NCBI GenBank assembly: GCA_900547555.1 | Contig: URHG01000006.1 | Span: 7,640-71,639 of the forward strand | DNA length: 64,000 bases | Direction: 5' to 3' | DNA from: an uncultured Porphyromonadaceae bacterium | GTDB taxonomy: Bacteria > Bacteroidota > Bacteroidia > Bacteroidales > UBA11471 | Part shown: positions 4,577-12,863 of the stretch, one piece after another | How positions within the stretch are numbered: the stretch's first letter is position 1 | Layout: every line of letters begins with the position of its first letter | Notes under the pieces: generated by a model | What the model was told of the DNA's origin: nothing | What the model saw: only the letters and a program-made list of their open reading frames with translations | The model's database searches: none | Position numbers and translations under genes: made by a program

Positions 4577-7054
4577 TTATGCTTTATCGTTACATTCTTT
4601 GGGTATGGAAAGGTCTATCGGGTGGGAGACTTTTTCTTGAAGCAGGGCGATGTCGAGAACCTCTTTTATATCGTGTACATAGTAGAACTTCAATCCTTTA
4701 AGATAGTTTTCTTTGATATCTTCGATATCTTTTCGGTTTTCTTCGCAGAGAATAATCTCTTTGATACCGGCACGCTTTGCCGCAAGAATTTTTTCTTTGA
4801 TACCCCCGACTGGCAATACGCGGCCTCGGAGTGTGATTTCTCCCGTCATGGCAAGATGAGCCCGTACTTTACGCTGGGTGAATGTCGAGGCGATAGATGT
4901 TACCATCGTAATTCCGGCCGATGGTCCGTCTTTGGGTATGGCCCCTTCGGGTACGTGGATATGCAGATTCCAGTGGTTGAATACGTCGTAGTCGATTCCC
5001 AGTTGGTCGGCGTGGGCTTTGACATATTGCAAAGCGATAACGGCGGATTCTTTCATTACATCTCCCAAATTTCCCGTGAGCGTAAGTTTCTCGCCCTTGT
5101 TGCGGCTCAAACTCGATTCGATATAAAGAATTTCTCCTCCGACGGCCGTCCATGCGAGACCGGTTACTACACCGGCGTAGTCATTCCCCTCATAGCGGTC
5201 GCGCATGTATTCCTTCATGCCGAGGTATTCCGTCAGTTCGTCTATGGGTAATTCATGGCTCCATTGTTCGCCCGACGCTTTTTTTCGAGCAACCTTTCGC
5301 ATGATTTTCGCGATTTTTTTATCGAGTTCCCGTACACCCGATTCCCGTGTGTACGATTCGATAATGGCAGCCATCGTTTTCTTGGGAATATCGAGATCGT
5401 CTTTGCTCAAACCATGTTCTTCGAGCTGTTTGGGGACGAGATGGCGTCGGCCTATCTCGATTTTTTCTTCCTGTATGTAGCCCGAGACTTCGATGAGCTC
5501 CATACGGTCGAGCAGTGGCCGCGAGATGGTGTTCAGGTTGTTGGCTGTGGCAATAAACAATACTTTCGAGAGGTCGTAATCGATATCCAAATAATTATCG
5601 TGAAACGCATTGTTCTGTTCCGGGTCGAGCACTTCGAGAAGTGCCGATGCCGGGTCGCCCTTGAAGTCGTTGCCTATTTTGTCGATTTCGTCGAGAACGA
5701 ATACCGGATTGGAGGCTCCTGCTTTCTGTATACCCTGAATGATTCGTCCCGGCATAGCTCCGATATAAGTACGGCGATGCCCTCGTATTTCGGCCTCGTC
5801 GTGCAGACCGCCTAATGAGACACGTATATATTTGCGGTTCAGGGCGGCGGCGATCGATTTGCCCAAAGAGGTTTTTCCCACACCCGGAGGACCGTACAGG
5901 CAGATGATGGGAGCTTTCATGTCTCCCCGTAATTTGAGTACGGCAAGGTGTTCGATAATGCGCTCCTTGACTTTTTCGAGGCCGTAATGGTCTTTGTCGA
6001 GTTGCCGTTGGGCATTTTTCAAATTGAAGTTATCTGTCGTGTATTCACCCCACGGCAAGTCGGTCAACGTTTCGAGGTAGTTGTACTGTACCGAAAAATC
6101 GGGAGATTGGGGATAAAGTCGTTCCAGTCGACGTAGCTCTTTATCGAATACTTCTTGGACTTCTTTACTCCATTTCTTTTGCGCCGCTTTTTGCGAAAGC
6201 TCCTCGATATCTTGCTCTTGGCTATTGCCTCCCAACTCGTCCTGTATGGTTTTTATCTGTTGTTGCAGGAAATGTTCGCGTTGTTGCTGGTTGATATCGG
6301 CACGGGTTTTCGATTGGATATCGGCTTTTATTTCGAGTAGCTGAGCTTCTTTGCGTAGGGCGGCATAGAGGGCGAAAGCACGCTCTTTTACCGTCGGAAT
6401 ATCGAGAAAATCTTGTTTCTGTTGCGGCGTAAAAGGAATATTCGTGCACAAGAAATTGACGAGATAGAGCATATTACCCATATTGCGCAAGGCAAAAATG
6501 AGTTCTCTCGGCGGTTCGGGCATCGCCTTCAACACATCGAGCGTAATGTCTTTCAATGCATCGAGCAGCGCTTCGAATTCCTTGTCGTTTTCTTGGGGCA
6601 TAATTTCGGGTCGGAACGTGATATTTCCGGTAATGTACGGAAAATACGACGTAACCTCATCGAGGTGAAAACGTTGTTTCCCTTGTAAAATGACTGTCGT
6701 ATTGCCGTCGGGCATTTCCAGTATCTTGACGATTTCTCCCATAGAACCGATAGGATAGAGGTCGTCGGTTTCATCGGGATCGTCTTTGTACATGTCCTTC
6801 TGGCAGACAACGCCGATGAGTTGTTTCTTTTTGGCGGCTTCGCGTACCAGTTGCAGCGACTTGGCCCTGCCTACGGTAATAGGAAGGGTTACGCCGGGAA
6901 ATAACACCATGTTGCGTAAGGGGAGAATCGGTAATTTTTTTTCGTCGAGACCCGGACATTCGATATCGGGCGATCCGTCGATTTCGGCAAAAATCGTGCC
7001 AATATTGGTATTCTCGTCGGTATCGAAAAAGAGGTTTTTATCAGATGAAATCAT
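4577..7054 (-). CDS. lon: ATP-dependent Lon protease (LonA type)
   Basis: 825 aa. Walker [10 protein letters not shown], catalytic-serine motif [11 protein letters not shown], and an N-terminal LON substrate-binding domain ([11 protein letters not shown]). Confidence 0.97.
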
Positions 7055-7225
7055 AGTTAATCGTATTTGTCATTTTGTCAGGTTTCGGTTTATTCAGCAC
7101 TTTGCTGCACAAATTAGCTTATCTTTCTAAATAGCAATTGACGTGCCAAAGTTAATGATTCTTTATCGACTATGGGTATTATTATATATTTTTGTTTATT
7201 TGCCGACGAAAAAGTCCCGAATAAT

Positions 7226-7945
7226 ATGAGCAATCCCTATTTCCGGTTCAAACAATTTACCGTATGGCATGACCGGTGTGCCATGAAAGTTGGTACCGAC
7301 GGTGTTTTGATAGGTGCGTGGTGCGATGTCGTTGCATGTAGCCGCATTCTTGATATCGGGTGTGGAACTGGCCTTATATCTTTGATGGTTGCCCAAAGGA
7401 CTCCTGATAAGACAATGATAGAGGGTGTGGAAATCGATGTTGTCGCGTCAGGACAAGCTGTCGAGAATGTCGGTCGTTCGCCGTGGAAAGATAAGATCAG
7501 GATTCATGCTTCCGATTTTCTCGATTTCGCAACTTCTGCAACCGCCCGCTACGACCATATTGTATCGAATCCGCCTTATTTTGAAAAATCGCTTTTGCCC
7601 GAAGATGCAGCCCGTCTCACAGCCCGACATACCGAATGTCTTACTTATGAGTCGCTTTTGCGTGGGGCTGTGTCGCTCTTGCTTCCCGGGGGACGTATAT
7701 CGCTTATATTTCCGGCCGGATTATATGATTCGGTTTCTGCCATAGCCCGGGAGTGCGGACTTTTTATCCGGCGTATCATGTGGGTGAGCGGTCGGGAAGG
7801 TATGTCCCCCAAGCGGGTGATGGTAGAGTGGGGAAACATGCCGTCCGAGATTAGAGAGGAACACACTTTGGCGATCGAGACGGCACCGTTGCAATGGACG
7901 CCCGAATATATCGATTTGACGCGCGATTTTTATTTACAGTTGTGA
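7226..7945 (+). CDS. trmN6: tRNA1(Val) (adenine37-N6)-methyltransferase-like SAM-dependent methyltransferase
   Basis: ORF 7172..7945. ATG at 7226 gives MSNPYFRFKQFTVWHDRCAMKVGTDGVLIGAW. SAM motif ILDIGCGTG and N6-MTase motif NPPY are present. Confidence 0.8.
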   Translation: MSNPYFRFKQFTVWHDRCAMKVGTDGVLIGAWCDVVACSRILDIGCGTGLISLMVAQRTPDKTMIEGVEIDVVASGQAVENVGRSPWKDKIRIHASDFLDFATSATARYDHIVSNPPYFEKSLLPEDAARLTARHTECLTYESLLRGAVSLLLPGGRISLIFPAGLYDSVSAIARECGLFIRRIMWVSGREGMSPKRVMVEWGNMPSEIREEHTLAIETAPLQWTPEYIDLTRDFYLQL

Positions 7946-7949
7946 TAAG

Positions 7950-7988
7950 AGAAAAGGGAATATGTGTTTTTGACATATCCCCTTTTCT
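7950..7988. terminator. bidirectional hairpin between convergent trmN6 and tyrA
   Basis: agaaaagggaatatgt / acatatccccttttct is a 16-position stem with one mismatch and a 7-nt loop. It is flanked by A/T runs. Confidence 0.6.
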
Positions 7989-8004
7989 GTCGAAGGTTTG
8001 GGTG

Positions 8005-8778
8005 TTACTTGATATTTTCCCGTAATTGCGTGAGGTATTTTTTCATTCCTGCACTATCTTTTTGCTTGATGATATTTTGGAGTGTCGACAACTGTTCTTG
8101 TATTTTTTCCAGTTGCTCTCCGGTGTGGGGATTGAAGAGAATTTCGGTAAGCAGATAGTCGTCTTCCGATAACAGGCCTCGGGCGATATTCATGTGTTTT
8201 TTGAATGTCGTGCCCGGAGCGTCTTGATGTTTCATCGTGGCGGCGAATACCATCGTCGAAACAAACGGGATAGAAAGCGAATAAGCTATCGTCTCGTCGT
8301 GTTGCTTGAATGTGTATTCGAAGATGTTGAGGTGCAAACGGCTGTATAGGTCTTTGAAAAAGACTTTTCCCAAATGATCCGACTCGGTGATGATGATGGC
8401 GTTTTCTTCGGACAGACTGCCGAGGTTGGCAAACGTGGGGCCGAACATCGGGTGTGTCGAAACGAAAGGCCGTTTGGCTTTCTTGTAAAATTCGGGAAGC
8501 CCGGTCTTTACCGAGGCTATGTCGGATATGATACAAGATTCGGGAATGTGCGGCAGAACCGATTCGAACGCGGAAATTGTGTATTTGACCGTTGCGGCGT
8601 TGATGAGCAGTTCGGGTCTGAAAGCCTCGATTTCTTCCATCGTCGTCATGCGTTGCGTGTTGAATGTGAAACGCAGCCGTTGAGGGTCGGTGTCATATAT
8701 GGCGACTTCGTGTTCGAAACTCAATACGTCGGAGAAAAACGAACCCATTTTCCCGGCACCTAAAATCAGAATCTTCAT
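8005..8778 (-). CDS. tyrA: prephenate dehydrogenase
   Basis: 257 aa with an N-terminal Rossmann motif MKILILGAGKMGSFF. It is the last gene of the aromatic amino acid operon, 7 nt after the upstream gene. Confidence 0.85.
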   Translation of the reverse strand: MKILILGAGKMGSFFSDVLSFEHEVAIYDTDPQRLRFTFNTQRMTTMEEIEAFRPELLINAATVKYTISAFESVLPHIPESCIISDIASVKTGLPEFYKKAKRPFVSTHPMFGPTFANLGSLSEENAIIITESDHLGKVFFKDLYSRLHLNIFEYTFKQHDETIAYSLSIPFVSTMVFAATMKHQDAPGTTFKKHMNIARGLLSEDDYLLTEILFNPHTGEQLEKIQEQLSTLQNIIKQKDSAGMKKYLTQLRENIK

Positions 8779-8785
8779 TTCGATA

Positions 8786-9862
8786 TTATTTGTTGATGAT
8801 GACCATTTGTTGACGTATCGACTCTTCGTGGATCGCAGCCAAAATAGTTTTCATAAACTCTCCGTCCATATCCATGTTACAAGCTTGTTCCACGCGTTTG
8901 TTCAAGATTTCATCATAACGGGTAGCCTGTAAAATAGGCATATCATGCTCTTTTTTATACAGCCCGATTTCGCGTGAGATGCGCATACGTTTTGCCAACA
9001 GGTCGAGCAGCTGGTTATCGAGTTCATCGATTTGCCGACGCAGTTCGTTGAGGTTTTCGGTACTTTGTGATGTTTCCCTTATGATAAGCATATCGAGAAT
9101 ATAAGCTAAGACGTCGGGGGTAACTTGTTGCGATGCGTCGCTCCATGCACAATCGGGGTTACAGTGCGATTCGATGATGAGCCCGTCAAATCCGAGATCC
9201 ATAGCTTGCTGGCTGAGCGGAGCTATAAGATCTCGTTTCCCGCCTATGTGGCTGGGGTCGCATATAATGGGAATATTCGGAAACCGGCGGCGCAGTTCGA
9301 TGGGAATGTGCCATTGGGGGAGATTCCGGTAGATACGTTTATCGTATGCGCTGAATCCCCGGTGAATGACACCTATTTTACGTATTCCGGCATTGTAGAT
9401 GCGTTCTACGGCACCGATCCATAATTCAAGGTCGGGATTGACCGGGTTTTTGATAAGGATAGGTATGTCCACGCCTTTCAATGCATCGGCTATCTCTTGC
9501 ATCGAGAAAGGATTCGCCGCAGTACGGGCACCTATCCAAAGAATATCCACACCGTATTTGAGTGCTTCGAATACATGGTATTGATTGGCCACTTCGGTCG
9601 AAACGTACATGCCTGTTTCTTCCTTCACACGTTTCAGCCAAGGCAGTCCGATACTGCCTACACCTTCGAAACCTCCCGGTTTGGTACGAGGTTTCCATAT
9701 TCCGGCACGGAATATTTTGATACCTTGTGCGGCCAGCTCTTTGGCGGTTTCGAGTACTTGGTCTTCGGTCTCGGCGCTGCATGGGCCGGCGATGACGAGC
9801 GGGCGTTTGTTTTCGATACCCGGTAGGGTAATCGGTTCCAGATTCATAATTGTGTCTGCCAT
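8786..9862 (-). CDS. bifunctional 3-deoxy-7-phosphoheptulonate (DAHP) synthase / chorismate mutase type II
   Basis: 358 aa. The N-terminal about 260 aa resemble type I-beta DAHP/KDO8P synthases (RPLVIAGPCSAE, KPRT, DPSH). The C-terminal helical segment ELRRQIDELDNQLLDLLAKRMRISREIGLYK is a chorismate mutase type II signature. Confidence 0.88.
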   Translation of the reverse strand: MADTIMNLEPITLPGIENKRPLVIAGPCSAETEDQVLETAKELAAQGIKIFRAGIWKPRTKPGGFEGVGSIGLPWLKRVKEETGMYVSTEVANQYHVFEALKYGVDILWIGARTAANPFSMQEIADALKGVDIPILIKNPVNPDLELWIGAVERIYNAGIRKIGVIHRGFSAYDKRIYRNLPQWHIPIELRRRFPNIPIICDPSHIGGKRDLIAPLSQQAMDLGFDGLIIESHCNPDCAWSDASQQVTPDVLAYILDMLIIRETSQSTENLNELRRQIDELDNQLLDLLAKRMRISREIGLYKKEHDMPILQATRYDEILNKRVEQACNMDMDGEFMKTILAAIHEESIRQQMVIINK

Positions 9863-9885
9863 AGAATAGGAGTATTTTGTTGTTA

Positions 9886-11073
9886 TTATATTCTGATGTG
9901 GTTTTTGATACGTTTGAGGGATTCTTCCAATGCTGTTTTATCGGCGCAGAGCGAAATGCGGACATAGCGTTCTCCCTGACTGCCGAATATGATTCCCGGA
10001 GTGATAAAAACATGTGCCTCATACAATACTTTATCAGCCAGTTCTGCTCCGTCTTTCACGTTATCCGGAATCTTTGCCCACAGGAACATGCCTCTTTGGT
10101 TTTTGTCGAAAGTGCAGCCGAGAGCTTCTACGATTTTTTCGGCGATGCCTCGGCGCTCTTGATAAATCATGTTGTTGCCTTCGTACCAAGATGCCGGCAG
10201 AGACAAGGCGTGGGCGGCGGCTTCCTGCATGGGACGGAAAGTCCCCGAGTCGATATTGCTTTTCACGCGCAATATCCAAGATACGAATTGAGCATTCGAG
10301 GCCAGCATGCCTACGCGCCAGCCAGGCATATTGTGCGATTTGCTCATCGAGTTCATTTCGATACAGATTTCTTTTGCTCCCGGGATCGACAACAGGCTCA
10401 GCGGAGTGTCGTTGAGAATGAAGCTATAAGGGTTGTCGTTGACGATGATGATGTTGTGGCGACGTCCGAAATCGACCAGCTTCTCGAATAATTCACGGCT
10501 TGCTTGTGCGCCGGTAGGCATGTGCGGGTAGTTTACCCACATGAGTTTTACACCCGAGAGATCGGCTTTTTCCAAACTTTCGAAGTCGGGTTGCCAATTG
10601 TTTTCTTCCCGCAGTTCGTAAGGAAGAATACGGGCTTCGGCCAGTCGGCTTACCGATGTATAAGTAGGATATCCGGGATTCGGGACCAATACTCCGTCTC
10701 CGGGATTGAGAAATGCCAAAGAAATGTGCAGGATTCCCTCTTTCGACCCGATGAGCGGTTGTATTTCATTGGCCGGATTGAGATCTACTCCGTACCATTT
10801 TTTATACCAGTCGGCAAATGCCTGCCGCAATTCGGGAATACCCACATACGGTTGGTACCCGTGCGTATTGTCTTTGTGGCTTTCACGACAGAGCGTTTCG
10901 ATGGTTTCGCGATGAGGCGGACGGTCGGGACTGCCTATTCCGAGACTGATGACGTTGAGGCCCCGGGCATTCATGTCGGCAACCTCTTTCAGCTTTTTCG
11001 AGAAATAATATTCGCTGATTTGGTTTACTCGGTTGGCGGGTGTTATATTACAAGTCGTTTTTAGATTCGGCAT
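9886..11073 (-). CDS. class I/II PLP-dependent aminotransferase (likely aromatic/prephenate aminotransferase by operon context)
   Basis: ORF 9886..11151. ATG 11073 (MPNLKTT...NRVNQISEYYFSKK) is the only start that keeps the conserved N-terminus. PLP-lysine motif SMSKSHNMPGWRVG. It overlaps the pheA 3-prime end by 26 nt. Confidence 0.85.
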   Translation of the reverse strand: MPNLKTTCNITPANRVNQISEYYFSKKLKEVADMNARGLNVISLGIGSPDRPPHRETIETLCRESHKDNTHGYQPYVGIPELRQAFADWYKKWYGVDLNPANEIQPLIGSKEGILHISLAFLNPGDGVLVPNPGYPTYTSVSRLAEARILPYELREENNWQPDFESLEKADLSGVKLMWVNYPHMPTGAQASRELFEKLVDFGRRHNIIIVNDNPYSFILNDTPLSLLSIPGAKEICIEMNSMSKSHNMPGWRVGMLASNAQFVSWILRVKSNIDSGTFRPMQEAAAHALSLPASWYEGNNMIYQERRGIAEKIVEALGCTFDKNQRGMFLWAKIPDNVKDGAELADKVLYEAHVFITPGIIFGSQGERYVRISLCADKTALEESLKRIKNHIRI

Positions 11074-11890
11074 ATTCTCCAAGTATTTTAAGTTCTTTGA
11101 TAAGGGGGGTAATCGCATCGACTGCCTGACGGTATCGCAAACGGTCTTCATATACGACGTCGATATAGAATTGGTATTCCCATTCGCGTCCGATGATGGG
11201 GAGAGACTGTATTTTTGTCAGGATCATTTTGTAATAAGAGAGTATCGATAGAACCTGAGACAAGCTGCCTTCGGTATGCGGGAGGGTAAATACGAGGCTC
11301 GATTTGTTGCAGGCCTTGTTTTTGCGCAATTCGTCGGCATGCCAACGATTGGCCAAAATCAGAAAACGGGTGGAATTGTGTTTGTTGGTTTCGATGCCCT
11401 CTTGCAGAATTTTCAATCCGTACATGGCCGCTACGTCTTTGCCGCAAATGGCGGCATGTCCGCGCAGTTTGTTCTCGAAAATATCTTCTGCACTCTTGGC
11501 TGTATCTTCGGCTTCCACAGCTTTGATATTGGGGTGGGCGTTCAAGAACTCTCTACATTGCATGAGTGCTATGGGGTGGGAGCTTACCTCTGTTATATCT
11601 TCCCAATTGTCTTCGGGCAGACACATGATTGAGTGTGAAATGTGCAGGCGGGCTTCCCCGATGATTTGCGTGTCGCTTTCGCGCAAGAGTTCGTGATTTT
11701 GCAGTAAGCTCCCAGCTATGGTATTTTCGATGGCCATGAGTCCGATGACAGAATCGTCTTTTTTTATCATCGAAAAAATATTTTCGAAGCGGGCGCAATA
11801 AATTACTTCTATATCTTCACCCGAGAAATACCGGTGTGCGGTTATGTCGTGAAAAGAACCTTTGGCTCCTTGTATGGCAATACGTTTCAT
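11048..11890 (-). CDS. pheA: prephenate dehydratase (PDT + ACT domains, no fused chorismate mutase)
   Basis: ORF 11048..11971. Start ATG 11890 (MKRIAIQGAKGSFHD). It has the TRF motif (NSTRFLIL) and a C-terminal ACT-like region. Confidence 0.9.
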   Translation of the reverse strand: MKRIAIQGAKGSFHDITAHRYFSGEDIEVIYCARFENIFSMIKKDDSVIGLMAIENTIAGSLLQNHELLRESDTQIIGEARLHISHSIMCLPEDNWEDITEVSSHPIALMQCREFLNAHPNIKAVEAEDTAKSAEDIFENKLRGHAAICGKDVAAMYGLKILQEGIETNKHNSTRFLILANRWHADELRKNKACNKSSLVFTLPHTEGSLSQVLSILSYYKMILTKIQSLPIIGREWEYQFYIDVVYEDRLRYRQAVDAITPLIKELKILGEYAESKNDL

Positions 11891-11908
11891 ATTTGTGTTT
11901 TGTGTTAT

Positions 11909-11943
11909 AAAAAAATTCCCACTCTTCTGTGTCAGAAGGTGGG
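11909..11943 (-). terminator. attenuator 2 intrinsic terminator, 18 nt upstream of pheA ATG
   Basis: Minus strand reads CCCACCTTCTG-ACA-CAGAAG(A)GTGGG (11 bp, one bulged A) followed by AATTTTTTT. Confidence 0.75.
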
Positions 11944-12054
11944 ATAACATATCATCGAGTTTTTGAGGCATGTGCGATTGCCTCCCACCTTAATGCCTTG
12001 TTGCATAAAGTAGAAAAAATAAAAACCGTAAAATCGAGAAAATGAATGTTTCAT
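11932..12054 (-). CDS. candidate leader peptide 2 (MKHSFSRFYGFYFFYFMQQGIKVGGNRTCLKNSMICYPTF)
   Basis: ATG at 12054 (an alternative in-frame ATG at 12060 gives MTMKH...). Nine of the first 16 codons are Phe/Tyr. It is the in-frame 3-prime part of track ORF 11932..12120. The stop TGA sits in the terminator loop. Confidence 0.55.
   Translation of the reverse strand: MKHSFSRFYGFYFFYFMQQGIKVGGNRTCLKNSMICYPTF
11936..11991 (-). promoter_or_regulatory. attenuator 2 antiterminator pairing
   Basis: Minus-strand AAGGTGGGA (11991-11983) is the perfect complement of TCCCACCTT (11944-11936). The latter is the 5-prime arm of the terminator, so the two structures are mutually exclusive. Confidence 0.6.
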
Positions 12055-12067
12055 AGTCATGTATATT

Positions 12068-12095
12068 AAAAAATCCCGTCTTGCGAACGGGATTT
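12068..12095 (-). terminator. attenuator 1 intrinsic terminator
   Basis: Minus strand reads AAATCCCGT-TCGCAAG-ACGGGATTT, with the run continuing as TTTTTT. It ends 8 nt before the second leader ORF region. Confidence 0.75.
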
Positions 12096-12134
12096 CTTTA
12101 TTTTGTGAATCATTAGCCATACAGAATCCCGTTC
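12085..12134 (-). promoter_or_regulatory. attenuator 1 antiterminator pairing
   Basis: GAACGGGATT (12134-12125) lies directly after the leader stop codon. It is the perfect 10-nt complement of AATCCCGTTC (12094-12085), which overlaps the terminator 5-prime arm. Confidence 0.7.
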
Positions 12135-12191
12135 TTACTTTTGGGTAAAGTAAAAATAGAAAAAGTAAGTATAGCTAAAACAATGTTTCAT
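12135..12191 (-). CDS. candidate leader peptide 1 (MKHCFSYTYFFYFYFTQK, 18 aa)
   Basis: Below the ORF-track size cutoff and found by hand translation of the minus strand. ATG 12191, TAA 12137-12135, with 5 Phe and 4 Tyr codons in 18. Confidence 0.7.
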   Translation of the reverse strand: MKHCFSYTYFFYFYFTQK

Positions 12192-12215
12192 CTTTTGCTG
12201 TTGCTTTTACGGCGA

Positions 12216-12223
12216 CAAAGATA
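12216..12223 (-). promoter_or_regulatory. candidate -7 promoter element (TATCTTTG on minus strand) for the leader/pheA operon
   Basis: Plus caaagata. It lies 24 nt upstream of the leader peptide 1 ATG. Confidence 0.5.
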
Positions 12224-12396
12224 GAAAAGATTACGAGAAGAAAAAAGTATTTTGCAATTTTTTTTGTCAAAAAGAAAAGCAAATGCCATTTCTGAAAAAG
12301 AAACTGTAAATTATAGTAAGCGCTAACCCGTGCGGTCGAGAATCGATTCTGTTTTCTTCTTTAATATGTAAATATATTTGTTATTATAAATATTAT

Positions 12397-12404
12397 TATA
12401 TTTG
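12397..12404 (+). promoter_or_regulatory. candidate -7 promoter element TATATTTG for mscL
   Basis: Matches TAnnTTTG, 22 nt upstream of ATG 12426. A second copy lies at 12373-12380. Confidence 0.4.
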
Positions 12405-12425
12405 CATAACTAAAATCAAATTATT

Positions 12426-12863
12426 ATGAAAAAAATTATTCAGGAGTTCAAGGCATTTGCTATGCGAGGGAATGTCGTTGATATGGCTGTCGGTGTGATT
12501 ATCGGTGGTGCATTCGGTAAGATTGTGTCATCGTTGGTTGCTGATATTATCATGCCGTTGATCGGAGTGCTGATCGGAGGTGTGAATTTCAAGGATTTGA
12601 AGTGGACATTCCATTCTCCTTCCATCGGTGAAGGAATCCCTGCACAGGAGGTTACCGTGAATTACGGTAATTTTATACAAGTAACATTTGATTTCCTGAT
12701 TATTGCATTTTCCATCTTCCTTTTTGTGAAACTCATCACTCGCTTCTCGCGTAAGAAAGCCGAAGAAGAGGCTGCCAAACCGACCCCGGCTCCGGTTGTT
12801 CCCGAAGACGTAAAATTATTGCAGGAAATACGGGATCTCTTAAAACAGAATAACCAGAAATGA
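12426..12863 (+). CDS. mscL: large-conductance mechanosensitive channel
   Basis: 145 aa. The N-terminus [41 protein letters not shown] is the MscL signature. Confidence 0.95.

Follow-up and report, generated by a model that had tools for sequence, protein, structure and literature searches.

The locus examined here raises the question of how expression is controlled for a four-gene operon that starts with pheA and covers phenylalanine (Phe), tyrosine (Tyr) and common-pathway biosynthesis. It lies in a 64,000-nucleotide (nt) stretch of DNA from an uncultured Porphyromonadaceae bacterium (contig URHG01000006.1, positions 7,640–71,639 of the forward strand), hereafter the window, whose positions are used throughout; operon and leader are both read from the minus strand. 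The original prediction had placed two successive leader-peptide attenuators of the same design between a promoter box and the pheA start. Our analysis favours the reading that both units are Phe/Tyr-responsive leader-peptide attenuators, with a confidence of roughly 80%, unit 1 lying above and unit 2 below this figure. The reading is based on the anatomy of the sequence, on homology and covariation, on the distribution over the clade and on thermodynamic plausibility, and from these we infer translation of the open reading frames (ORFs), ribosome stalling, termination in vivo, a response to Phe and Tyr and a benefit of having two units.

Read on the minus strand, the coordinates, complementary arms, hairpins and ORF starts originally proposed for this leader were all confirmed (Table 1). 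ORF1 devotes nine of its 18 codons to aromatic residues (five Phe and four Tyr). The two unit 1 arms, GAACGGGATT and AATCCCGTTC, are perfect 10-nt complements spaced exactly 30 nt apart, and in the nascent RNA region 2 is paired to leader codons 11–13, as an anti-antiterminator. Terminator 1 is followed by six T's ending at 12068, and its stem is extendable to 13 base pairs (bp) in the minimum free energy (MFE) fold. Unit 2 follows the same plan with a longer reading frame. ORF2 has 40 codons, opening MKHSFSRFYGFYFFYF, with seven Phe and four Tyr codons in total, nine of which fall within codons 5–16 (nine of the first 16 codons are Phe or Tyr). Its arms, AAGGTGGGA and TCCCACCTT, are perfect 9-nt complements, and the 3′ end of region 1, CUACUUUAUGC, pairs with GCAUUAAGGUGG, sequestering region 2. 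ORF2 spans the antiterminator arm, and its TGA sits in the loop of terminator 2, the end of which is 18 nt before the pheA ATG (11890). Between regions 2 and 3 of unit 2 we identified a small hairpin (GAGGCA/UGCCUC) that has no counterpart in unit 1; its stem is invariant and its loop variable across the closest relatives of the window, and it may be a pause or spacer hairpin.

The two leader ORFs stand out from the rest of the window. Among all ATG ORFs of 10–60 amino acids (aa) in the six frames of the 64-kb sequence, they are the only ones with at least seven Phe or Tyr in any 10 residues, and both reach eight; an ORF with eight of 10 did not arise in any of 30 simulated windows (second-order Markov). 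The folding expected of the leader was borne out as well. MFE folds formed both terminators and, in each unit, paired the 3′ part of the aromatic run with the antiterminator arm (the 1:2 hairpin), and against dinucleotide shuffles units 1 and 2 had folding z-scores of −5.2 and −5.1 and the whole leader one of −7.3, with no shuffle equalling the native sequence. Both terminator hairpins are followed by 6–7 T, likewise in the aligned members of the leader family described below.

A simple terminator scan picked up terminator 1 on the plus strand only; the minus-strand terminator was missed because its stem consumes the T run. The hairpin (12071–12095) is nearly palindromic, and the plus strand, where it is followed by CTTTATTTTG, also scored as terminator-like.

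To what extent the element is shared was addressed with 165 pheA loci (referred to by L numbers), of which 80 came from one genome per species, 80 from metagenomes and 5 from exact-protein look-up. PheA of the window shares 97% identity with the protein from Candidatus Caccoplasma intestinavium (Bacteroidaceae), and with Bacteroides PheA the figure is about 70%. An ATG-started, Phe/Tyr-rich short ORF is located 145–310 nt upstream of pheA in 75 of the 80 genome loci, a typical peptide being MKSFTYAYYFFFYFYFSNKVEREFVCIK; over the Bacteroidaceae loci together the distance is 145–311 nt. The five exceptions, namely three loci at a contig end, L040 with a GTG start and L003 without an ATG, all match the RNA model. 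The leader ORF of L040 (4561–4763) seems to begin at this GTG (VKAWRYVYYYFFYFYF...), and L003 (300–506) carries the full RNA element at 134 bits, yet has no ATG in the leader frame. ORF1 stops right before the antiterminator arm, as do the leader ORFs of L004, L033 and related loci; most of those in Bacteroides and Phocaeicola are ~10–13 codons longer and run across the arm.

The RNA model, R1, is a covariance model of 37 single-unit leaders, none of them from the window or its clade, and its E-values are rough owing to a shortened calibration. On the window, unit 1 gave a match of 86.8 bits (E 6.1e-16, 12065–12197) and unit 2 one of 33.8 bits (E 4e-5, 11908–12060), both over the full length of the model (positions 1–160). 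There was no further significant match in the window, the next (16.4 bits, E 0.14) being on the opposite strand of terminator 1. R1 matched upstream of pheA in all 165 loci, with one strong match just before the gene wherever the upstream DNA was intact, in Bacteroides, Phocaeicola, Mediterranea, Caccoplasma and metagenome-assembled genomes (MAGs) labelled Paraprevotella. The mixed Phe/Tyr-rich run is ancestral to this whole family, and the suggestion that mixed Phe and Tyr codons suit the cargo agrees both with this and with an operon that contains pheA together with a prephenate dehydrogenase gene.

Both helices of the unit-1-type leader are supported by covariation in A2, a MAFFT alignment of 40 such leaders. 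In the antiterminator helix (columns 70–80/150–160), 81.6% of cells are paired versus 30–52% when the partners are slid; pair 73–157 is G-C in 35 sequences, A-U in five and broken in none of the 40, and pair 71–159 is G-C in 19 and A-U in 15. In the terminator core, 97.2% of cells are paired versus 37–52% with slid partners, and pair 157–174 is C-G in 32 and U-A in five. Column 157, which belongs to the shared middle strand, co-varies with both of its partners; the change is seen in the Caccoplasma clade together with L004 and, as a separate event, in the Bacteroides MAG L011. Such double covariation is what an antiterminator and a terminator that exclude each other, the design that had been proposed, should leave in an alignment. 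RNAalifold on A2 returned the terminator only as consensus. The 1:2 hairpin was tested sequence by sequence, because it is shifted by one column between subgroups: in folds of the nascent transcript up to the point before region 3, at least 7 nt of region 2 were paired to aromatic codons in 39 of the 40 unit-1-type leaders, versus 33% with shuffled leaders. In the same folds of unit 2, region 2 lay on aromatic codons, again over at least 7 nt, in nine of nine sequences, versus 22% with shuffled leaders, so the pairing is genuinely enriched over its background.

That the two units are paralogues, as originally supposed, is indicated by their alignment, in which 95 of 130 positions (73%) are identical (z 6.4, with none of 300 shuffles as good), and both units open ATGAAACAT. 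From the strong match of unit 1 to R1, the weaker full-length match of unit 2 and this identity, we conclude that the ancestral leader has its orthologue in unit 1 and that unit 2 is a diverged paralogue. Besides the window, a second R1 match (27–38 bits) was present in only 11 of the 165 loci, L001, L002, L081–L084 and L161–L165, and two Phe/Tyr-rich ORFs occur only in the window and these closest relatives. The metagenome scan contributed four members of the clade and the exact-protein look-ups five more. The upstream DNA of L163–L165 is nearly identical to that of L084 or L002, with more divergent PheA, and these are probably low-coverage contigs; the deep branches of the PheA tree are unreliable because they rest on such contigs.

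In the 11 further loci, unit 2 keeps its ATG, its aromatic run and its three arms, with variation in the loops. Nine unit 2 sequences were aligned. In these the ATG, the aromatic run, the GAGGCA/UGCCUC hairpin and all three arms are invariant save for one change, an A-to-G in region 2 that keeps a G-U pair; the loops, including that of terminator 2, and the N-terminal codons vary. Identity per column across clade members is 86%, and their PheA proteins are 76–97% identical to that of the window. This pattern of conservation is consistent with function. Between unit 1 and unit 2 the helix sequence changes from CGGGA/TCCCG to TGGGA/TCCCA; the helices of unit 2 may have been re-coded in a way that would avoid cross-pairing with unit 1. 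L004 (4848–5001) has unit 1 only, yet in a neighbour-joining tree its PheA groups within the tandem clade, as sister to that of L161 (88% identity), which carries both units. The simplest history seems to be one duplication followed by one loss, in L004. In L161 (1184–1500) a similar TTTTTT(A)ATATAAAC stretch follows both terminators, and recombination there could excise unit 2 exactly.

The proposed mechanism is that of two ribosome-mediated transcription attenuators in series behind one promoter, which would sense charged tRNA-Phe and tRNA-Tyr and gate the four-gene operon, the second unit having arisen by tandem duplication in a Caccoplasma-like clade. In the nascent RNA of each unit, the Phe/Tyr run (region 1) would first pair with the antiterminator arm (region 2). 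If either Phe or Tyr runs short, a ribosome stalled on the aromatic codons would leave region 2 free to pair with region 3 before region 4 has been made, and the resulting lack of a terminator would allow read-through. When both amino acids are plentiful, the ribosome would cover region 2, and regions 3 and 4 would form the terminator. This covering would be brought about in unit 1 by a ribosome that sits at the stop codon, with the arm beginning 1 nt further on, and in unit 2 by translation across the arm. Without any translation, 1:2 and 3:4 pairing would lead to termination as well. Expression would approximate the product of two read-through probabilities, giving a tighter shut-off and a steeper response.

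We modelled the ribosome as a 28-nt unpaired block on a transcript that was truncated before region 4 and then folded. In unit 1, the 10-bp antiterminator formed with the ribosome at positions up to codon 15, was weaker at codons 16–17 and was absent at codons 18–19. In unit 2, the arm was locked by the 1:2 hairpin when no ribosome was present, the antiterminator formed with the ribosome on codons 7–9 or 11–18 (most of the aromatic run), and on codons 20–29 the arm was covered and no 2:3 helix formed. Within the limits of such a model, these folds support attenuation for both units. The proposal that a ribosome at the stop codon would mask the antiterminator arm holds cleanly in its simple form for unit 1 only, since the 40-codon ORF of unit 2 crosses the arm and ends in the terminator loop. 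Likewise, the anticipated conservation and covariation were found for the Phe/Tyr-rich ORFs and for both unit-1-type helices; unit 2 is conserved but shows no informative covariation, its arms being invariant in the nine sequences.

That last result weighs against the attenuator reading, as do several others. The apparent loss of unit 2 in L004 indicates that the second unit is dispensable. The background of 1:2 pairing in shuffled leaders (33% and 22%, as given above) is sizeable. With the ribosome on codons 30–33 of unit 2, the 2:3 helix can re-form. Beyond the aromatic run ORF2 has another 24 codons, and it stops at or within terminator 2, in a position that is not conserved: the stop is a TGA in the terminator 2 loop in the window, L001 and L084, a TAA directly 5′ of TCCCACC in L002, L083 and L164, and a TAA in the terminator loop in L161, the shift being caused by a 1-nt indel (GTT-ATCCC vs ATTAATCCC). 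ORF2 nevertheless always covers the antiterminator arm, unlike ORF1. A ribosome close behind the polymerase could mask region 3 of unit 2 and block termination even with amino acids plentiful, and the efficiency of termination at unit 2 depends on the distance between polymerase and ribosome. In equilibrium folds of the full units with the ribosome masked, the terminators win in most states, which means that the decision must be co-transcriptional and kinetic, as in all attenuators. Finally, the supplements of a Bacteroides thetaiotaomicron transcriptome paper hold no entry for the locus (PMC7366714).

Some of these points would also be explained if unit 1 alone works and unit 2 is a duplicated remnant, be it a leaky constitutive terminator, a spacer or a sequence drifting to loss. 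The lack of covariation in unit 2, the reach of ORF2 into the terminator with a shifting stop codon, the nested position of L004 and the family-model score of unit 2, far below that of unit 1, are all in line with this alternative. We nonetheless regard it as unlikely, since unit 2 has remained 86% identical per column over the PheA divergence noted above and retains its ATG, nine-codon aromatic run, 1:2 hairpin and all three complementary arms against a background of varying loops and flanks. A decaying unit 2 would first lose its ORF or its perfect 9-nt complementarity, the only change in its arms keeps a G-U pair, and a constitutive terminator before an essential biosynthetic operon would be costly.

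A second alternative, which we consider very unlikely, replaces the ribosome as reader by a trans-acting factor, either an RNA-binding protein on the repeated UUUUAC/UUUAC or uncharged tRNA as in T-boxes. Firmicutes handle the same problem via T-boxes and TRAP, and the core TTTTACTTTTACTTT shows almost no nucleotide variation, synonymous positions included, which could mean recognition of the RNA itself. This nucleotide conservation is, however, accounted for by the 1:2 pairing. Essentially all loci retain a start codon (GTG in one case) and a frame that stays open through the run, leader lengths differ by whole codons, and swaps of Phe for Tyr codons are tolerated, which fits codon identity and not a fixed RNA motif; there was also no T-box or other Rfam match. 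Least probable is that the hairpins act chiefly on pheA translation or mRNA stability and not on transcription termination: the structure of terminator 2 lies close enough to the pheA ATG that it could affect initiation, but the T runs after both hairpins recur in the aligned family members and have the signature of intrinsic terminators, unit 1 lies ~175 nt from pheA and is unable to occlude its start, and the pheA start region ATAACACAAAACACAAATATG is unpaired in the folds.

Returning to attenuation by translating ribosomes, how the two units would combine depends on the promoter. The 535-nt intergenic region has only one TAnnTTTG on its minus strand in a motif scan, and (C)TATCTTTG is kept upstream of leader 1 in L081–L084 and L161–L164, which makes this box the likely single promoter of both units and the operon. 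With no promoter box between the units, unit 2 would be transcribed only via read-through of unit 1, and the read-through probabilities should multiply. A sigma-70 promoter scan carries no information for Bacteroidota. We advance, at slightly less than even odds, a further proposal for the Caccoplasma-like clade: that it holds a natural two-stage attenuator in which the duplication was kept and the helices were re-coded, so that the stages fold independently and multiply, with ORF2 translated across its arm into the terminator.

In agreement with the view that the leader belongs to no described RNA family, Rfam 15 at gathering thresholds gave no match in the whole window and none for the leader in 13 related loci. 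Phe_leader (RF01859) was the best attenuator family in the scan, aligning over its full length to unit 1 with 23.7 bits (E 0.18) against a gathering score of 55; unit 2 was not listed. By the criterion of Rfam, the units in the window are therefore not members of this family, though their design is alike. The same family scored 15.7 bits, below threshold, on the leader strand of Bacteroides xylanisolvens, and in L010 the sub-threshold matches to attenuator families were to Phe, Leu, Thr and Trp leaders. No T-box, riboswitch or Bacteroid-trp (RF01692) was among the Rfam matches to E = 10 in 11700–12500. A match of unit 1 (12068–12186, minus strand) to BTnc231 (RF04180), a validated small RNA of B. 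thetaiotaomicron, raised the idea that this RNA might be the attenuator. We rejected it: the match scored 14.6 bits against a threshold of 80.4, was absent from Bacteroides loci whichever threshold was applied and probably reflects just shared terminator or U-rich features.

The four genes of the operon share the minus strand, and neighbours overlap or are separated by no more than 23 nt, apart from the probable start of the aminotransferase at 11073, which gives a 26-nt overlap with pheA, likewise in L161. PheA homologues align from M1, the ATG at 11890, and mscL is divergent from the leader with its start at 12426. Two longer reading frames were rejected as genes. A 62-codon ORF from ATG 12120, which crosses terminator 1 into ORF2, is not conserved in L083 or L161, and neither is an in-frame, 307-codon extension of pheA from ATG 11971. 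A gene caller annotated the equivalent of the 62-codon ORF as a gene in L163 (1269–1457), and database PheA entries of 291–316 aa probably start wrongly, inside the leader. Codon usage in the leader ORFs (12007–12179, minus strand) differs from that of the genes: nine of 12 Phe codons are TTT, compared with 47 TTC and 26 TTT in the four operon genes plus lon (4577–11890, minus strand), and Tyr codons are balanced in both. In L031 (Bacteroides cellulosilyticus), the pheA operon is followed at a distance of a few kb by a CRISPR array of 17 repeats (Rfam CRISPR-DR49, 9311–10585).

Table 1. Elements of the tandem leader and genes of the downstream operon, with positions in the window.
Feature	Position	Strand	Basis or remark
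Bacteroides-type −7 promoter box TATCTTTG (TAnnTTTG)	12216–12223	−	Sequence and motif scan
Leader ORF 1 (pheL-like) MKHCFSYTYFFYFYFTQK + TAA (12137–12135)	12135–12191	−	ATG 12191; sequence
Unit 1 region 1, Phe/Tyr codon run (codons 5–15)	12147–12179	−	MFE fold
Unit 1 region 2, antiterminator 5′ arm GAACGGGATT	12125–12134	−	Begins 1 nt past ORF1 stop
Unit 1 region 3 AATCCCGTTC, shared strand	12085–12094	−	Complement of region 2 and terminator 1 5′ arm
Terminator 1 AAATCCCGT / TCGCAAG / ACGGGATTT + T run	12068–12095	−	Hairpin 12095–12071; MFE folds
Leader ORF 2 MKHSFSRFYGFYFFYFMQQGIKVGGNRTCLKNSMICYPTF + TGA (11934–11932)	11932–12054	−	ATG 12054; in-frame alternative ATG 12060
Unit 2 region 1, Phe/Tyr codon run (codons 5–16)	12007–12042	−	Folds
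Unit 2 region 2, antiterminator 5′ arm AAGGTGGGA	11983–11991	−	Inside ORF2, codons K-V-G
Small G+C-rich hairpin GAGGCA(N8)UGCCUC between unit 2 regions 2 and 3	11965–11984	−	Folds and clade alignment
Unit 2 region 3 TCCCACCTT	11936–11944	−	Complement of region 2 and terminator 2 5′ arm
Terminator 2 CCCACCTTCTG / ACA / CAGAAG(A)GTGGG, then AATTTTTTT	11909–11943	−	Hairpin 11943–11918; T run ends 11909; arms invariant in clade
pheA, prephenate dehydratase, 280 aa, first structural gene	11048–11890	−	Pfam PDT, E 9.9e-54
Class I/II aminotransferase	9886–11073	−	Pfam Aminotran_1_2; start 11073 probable
DAHP synthase fused to chorismate mutase	8786–9862	−	Pfam DAHP_synth_1 and CM_2
Prephenate dehydrogenase (tyrA-like), last gene of the operon	8005–8778	−	Pfam PDH_N, E 3.3e-9

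The analysis defines a Phe/Tyr attenuator family in all Bacteroidaceae loci examined that is absent from Rfam and now has covariation and a working covariance model. Attenuation needs a ribosome close behind the polymerase, and its universal conservation in these loci is thus indirect evidence for transcription-translation coupling in Bacteroidota. The tandem form is a natural experiment on the value of a second sensor in series, with the apparent loss in L004 as a built-in comparison; if the two-stage proposal is true, the response to Phe and Tyr would be steeper and tighter. The leader also accounts for PheA annotations that are over-extended at the N terminus and for spurious small "genes" in the intergenic region, and it could serve as a Phe/Tyr-responsive part in the engineering of gut Bacteroides.

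Among known systems, pheL-pheA of E. coli and other gamma-proteobacteria shares with the leader in the window a short Phe-rich ORF, with both peptides beginning M-K-H, the four-region scheme of 1:2, 2:3 and 3:4 pairing and an intrinsic terminator just before pheA. The two have no demonstrable sequence homology, as the Phe_leader score indicates, and pheL-pheA has Phe codons only, controls pheA alone and consists of a single unit, whereas here Phe and Tyr codons precede a four-gene operon for Phe, Tyr and the common pathway in two units. To our knowledge, initiation in Bacteroidota is also not led by Shine-Dalgarno sequences. A closer likeness in codon content is offered by the multivalent thr leader of E. 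coli (Thr and Ile) and those of ilvGMEDA and ilvBN (Ile, Leu and Val), in which codons for every end product of the controlled pathway are mixed in one peptide, as Phe and Tyr are here; these leaders respond to other amino acids, have no sequence relationship to ours and are single units.

Outside Proteobacteria, the Bacteroid-trp motif and the Lactococcus Leu/phe leader are leader-peptide attenuators of amino-acid operons, and the former makes such a mechanism expected in Bacteroidota. Both have other regulatory codons and cargo, and neither was among the matches of the region to E = 10. They were described as predicted cis-regulatory RNAs (RF01692 and RF01743, respectively; Weinberg et al, 2010; PMC2864571). 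Closer to the present locus, a single sentence raises the use of a pheL gene by "Bacteriodes" as a possibility (Gurvich et al, 2011; PMC3082878), a transcriptome study of Flavobacterium psychrophilum reports a conserved structured element upstream of pheA with clues to a leader peptide and no Rfam match (PMC9723704), and the B. thetaiotaomicron transcriptome paper mentions leader-like small ORFs only generically (PMC7366714). The absence of a described RNA family thus holds for Rfam 15, and the single-unit pheA leader of Bacteroidaceae represents a type that is already known, noted in print but uncurated.

For the tandem arrangement, the searchable literature yielded no account of amino-acid leader-peptide attenuators that are duplicated, paralogous and arranged in series, in a search that was incomplete and does not prove absence. 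Our searches turned up "tandem attenuators" with two leader ORFs in one case only, mgtM and mgtP in the mgtCBR leader of Salmonella, where translation of two short ORFs picks between stem-loops (PMC3641672). As in the window, two leader ORFs in one RNA there control transcription into the coding region in series; the mgtCBR ORFs are mutually unrelated and respond to different signals, whereas the units described here are paralogues with the same codon content and their own intrinsic terminators (PMC3641672). Tandem riboswitches and tandem T-boxes likewise consist of two similar sensors in series, each with its own expression platform. Such arrangements are thought to sharpen the response. In those systems the RNA itself senses the ligand or tRNA, whereas in the leader of the window the ribosome would be the sensor. 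The nearest relative is the single-unit Bacteroidaceae pheA leader, to which unit 1 is orthologous and with which it shares the peptide pattern ..Y.Y.FF.YFYF.., the helices GAxCGGGA / TCCCGxTC / xCGGGA and the position before pheA. The clade of the window differs from it in having a second, diverged copy between unit 1 and pheA, and this tandem paralogous form, conserved in the Caccoplasma-like clade, is new relative to the single-unit leader.

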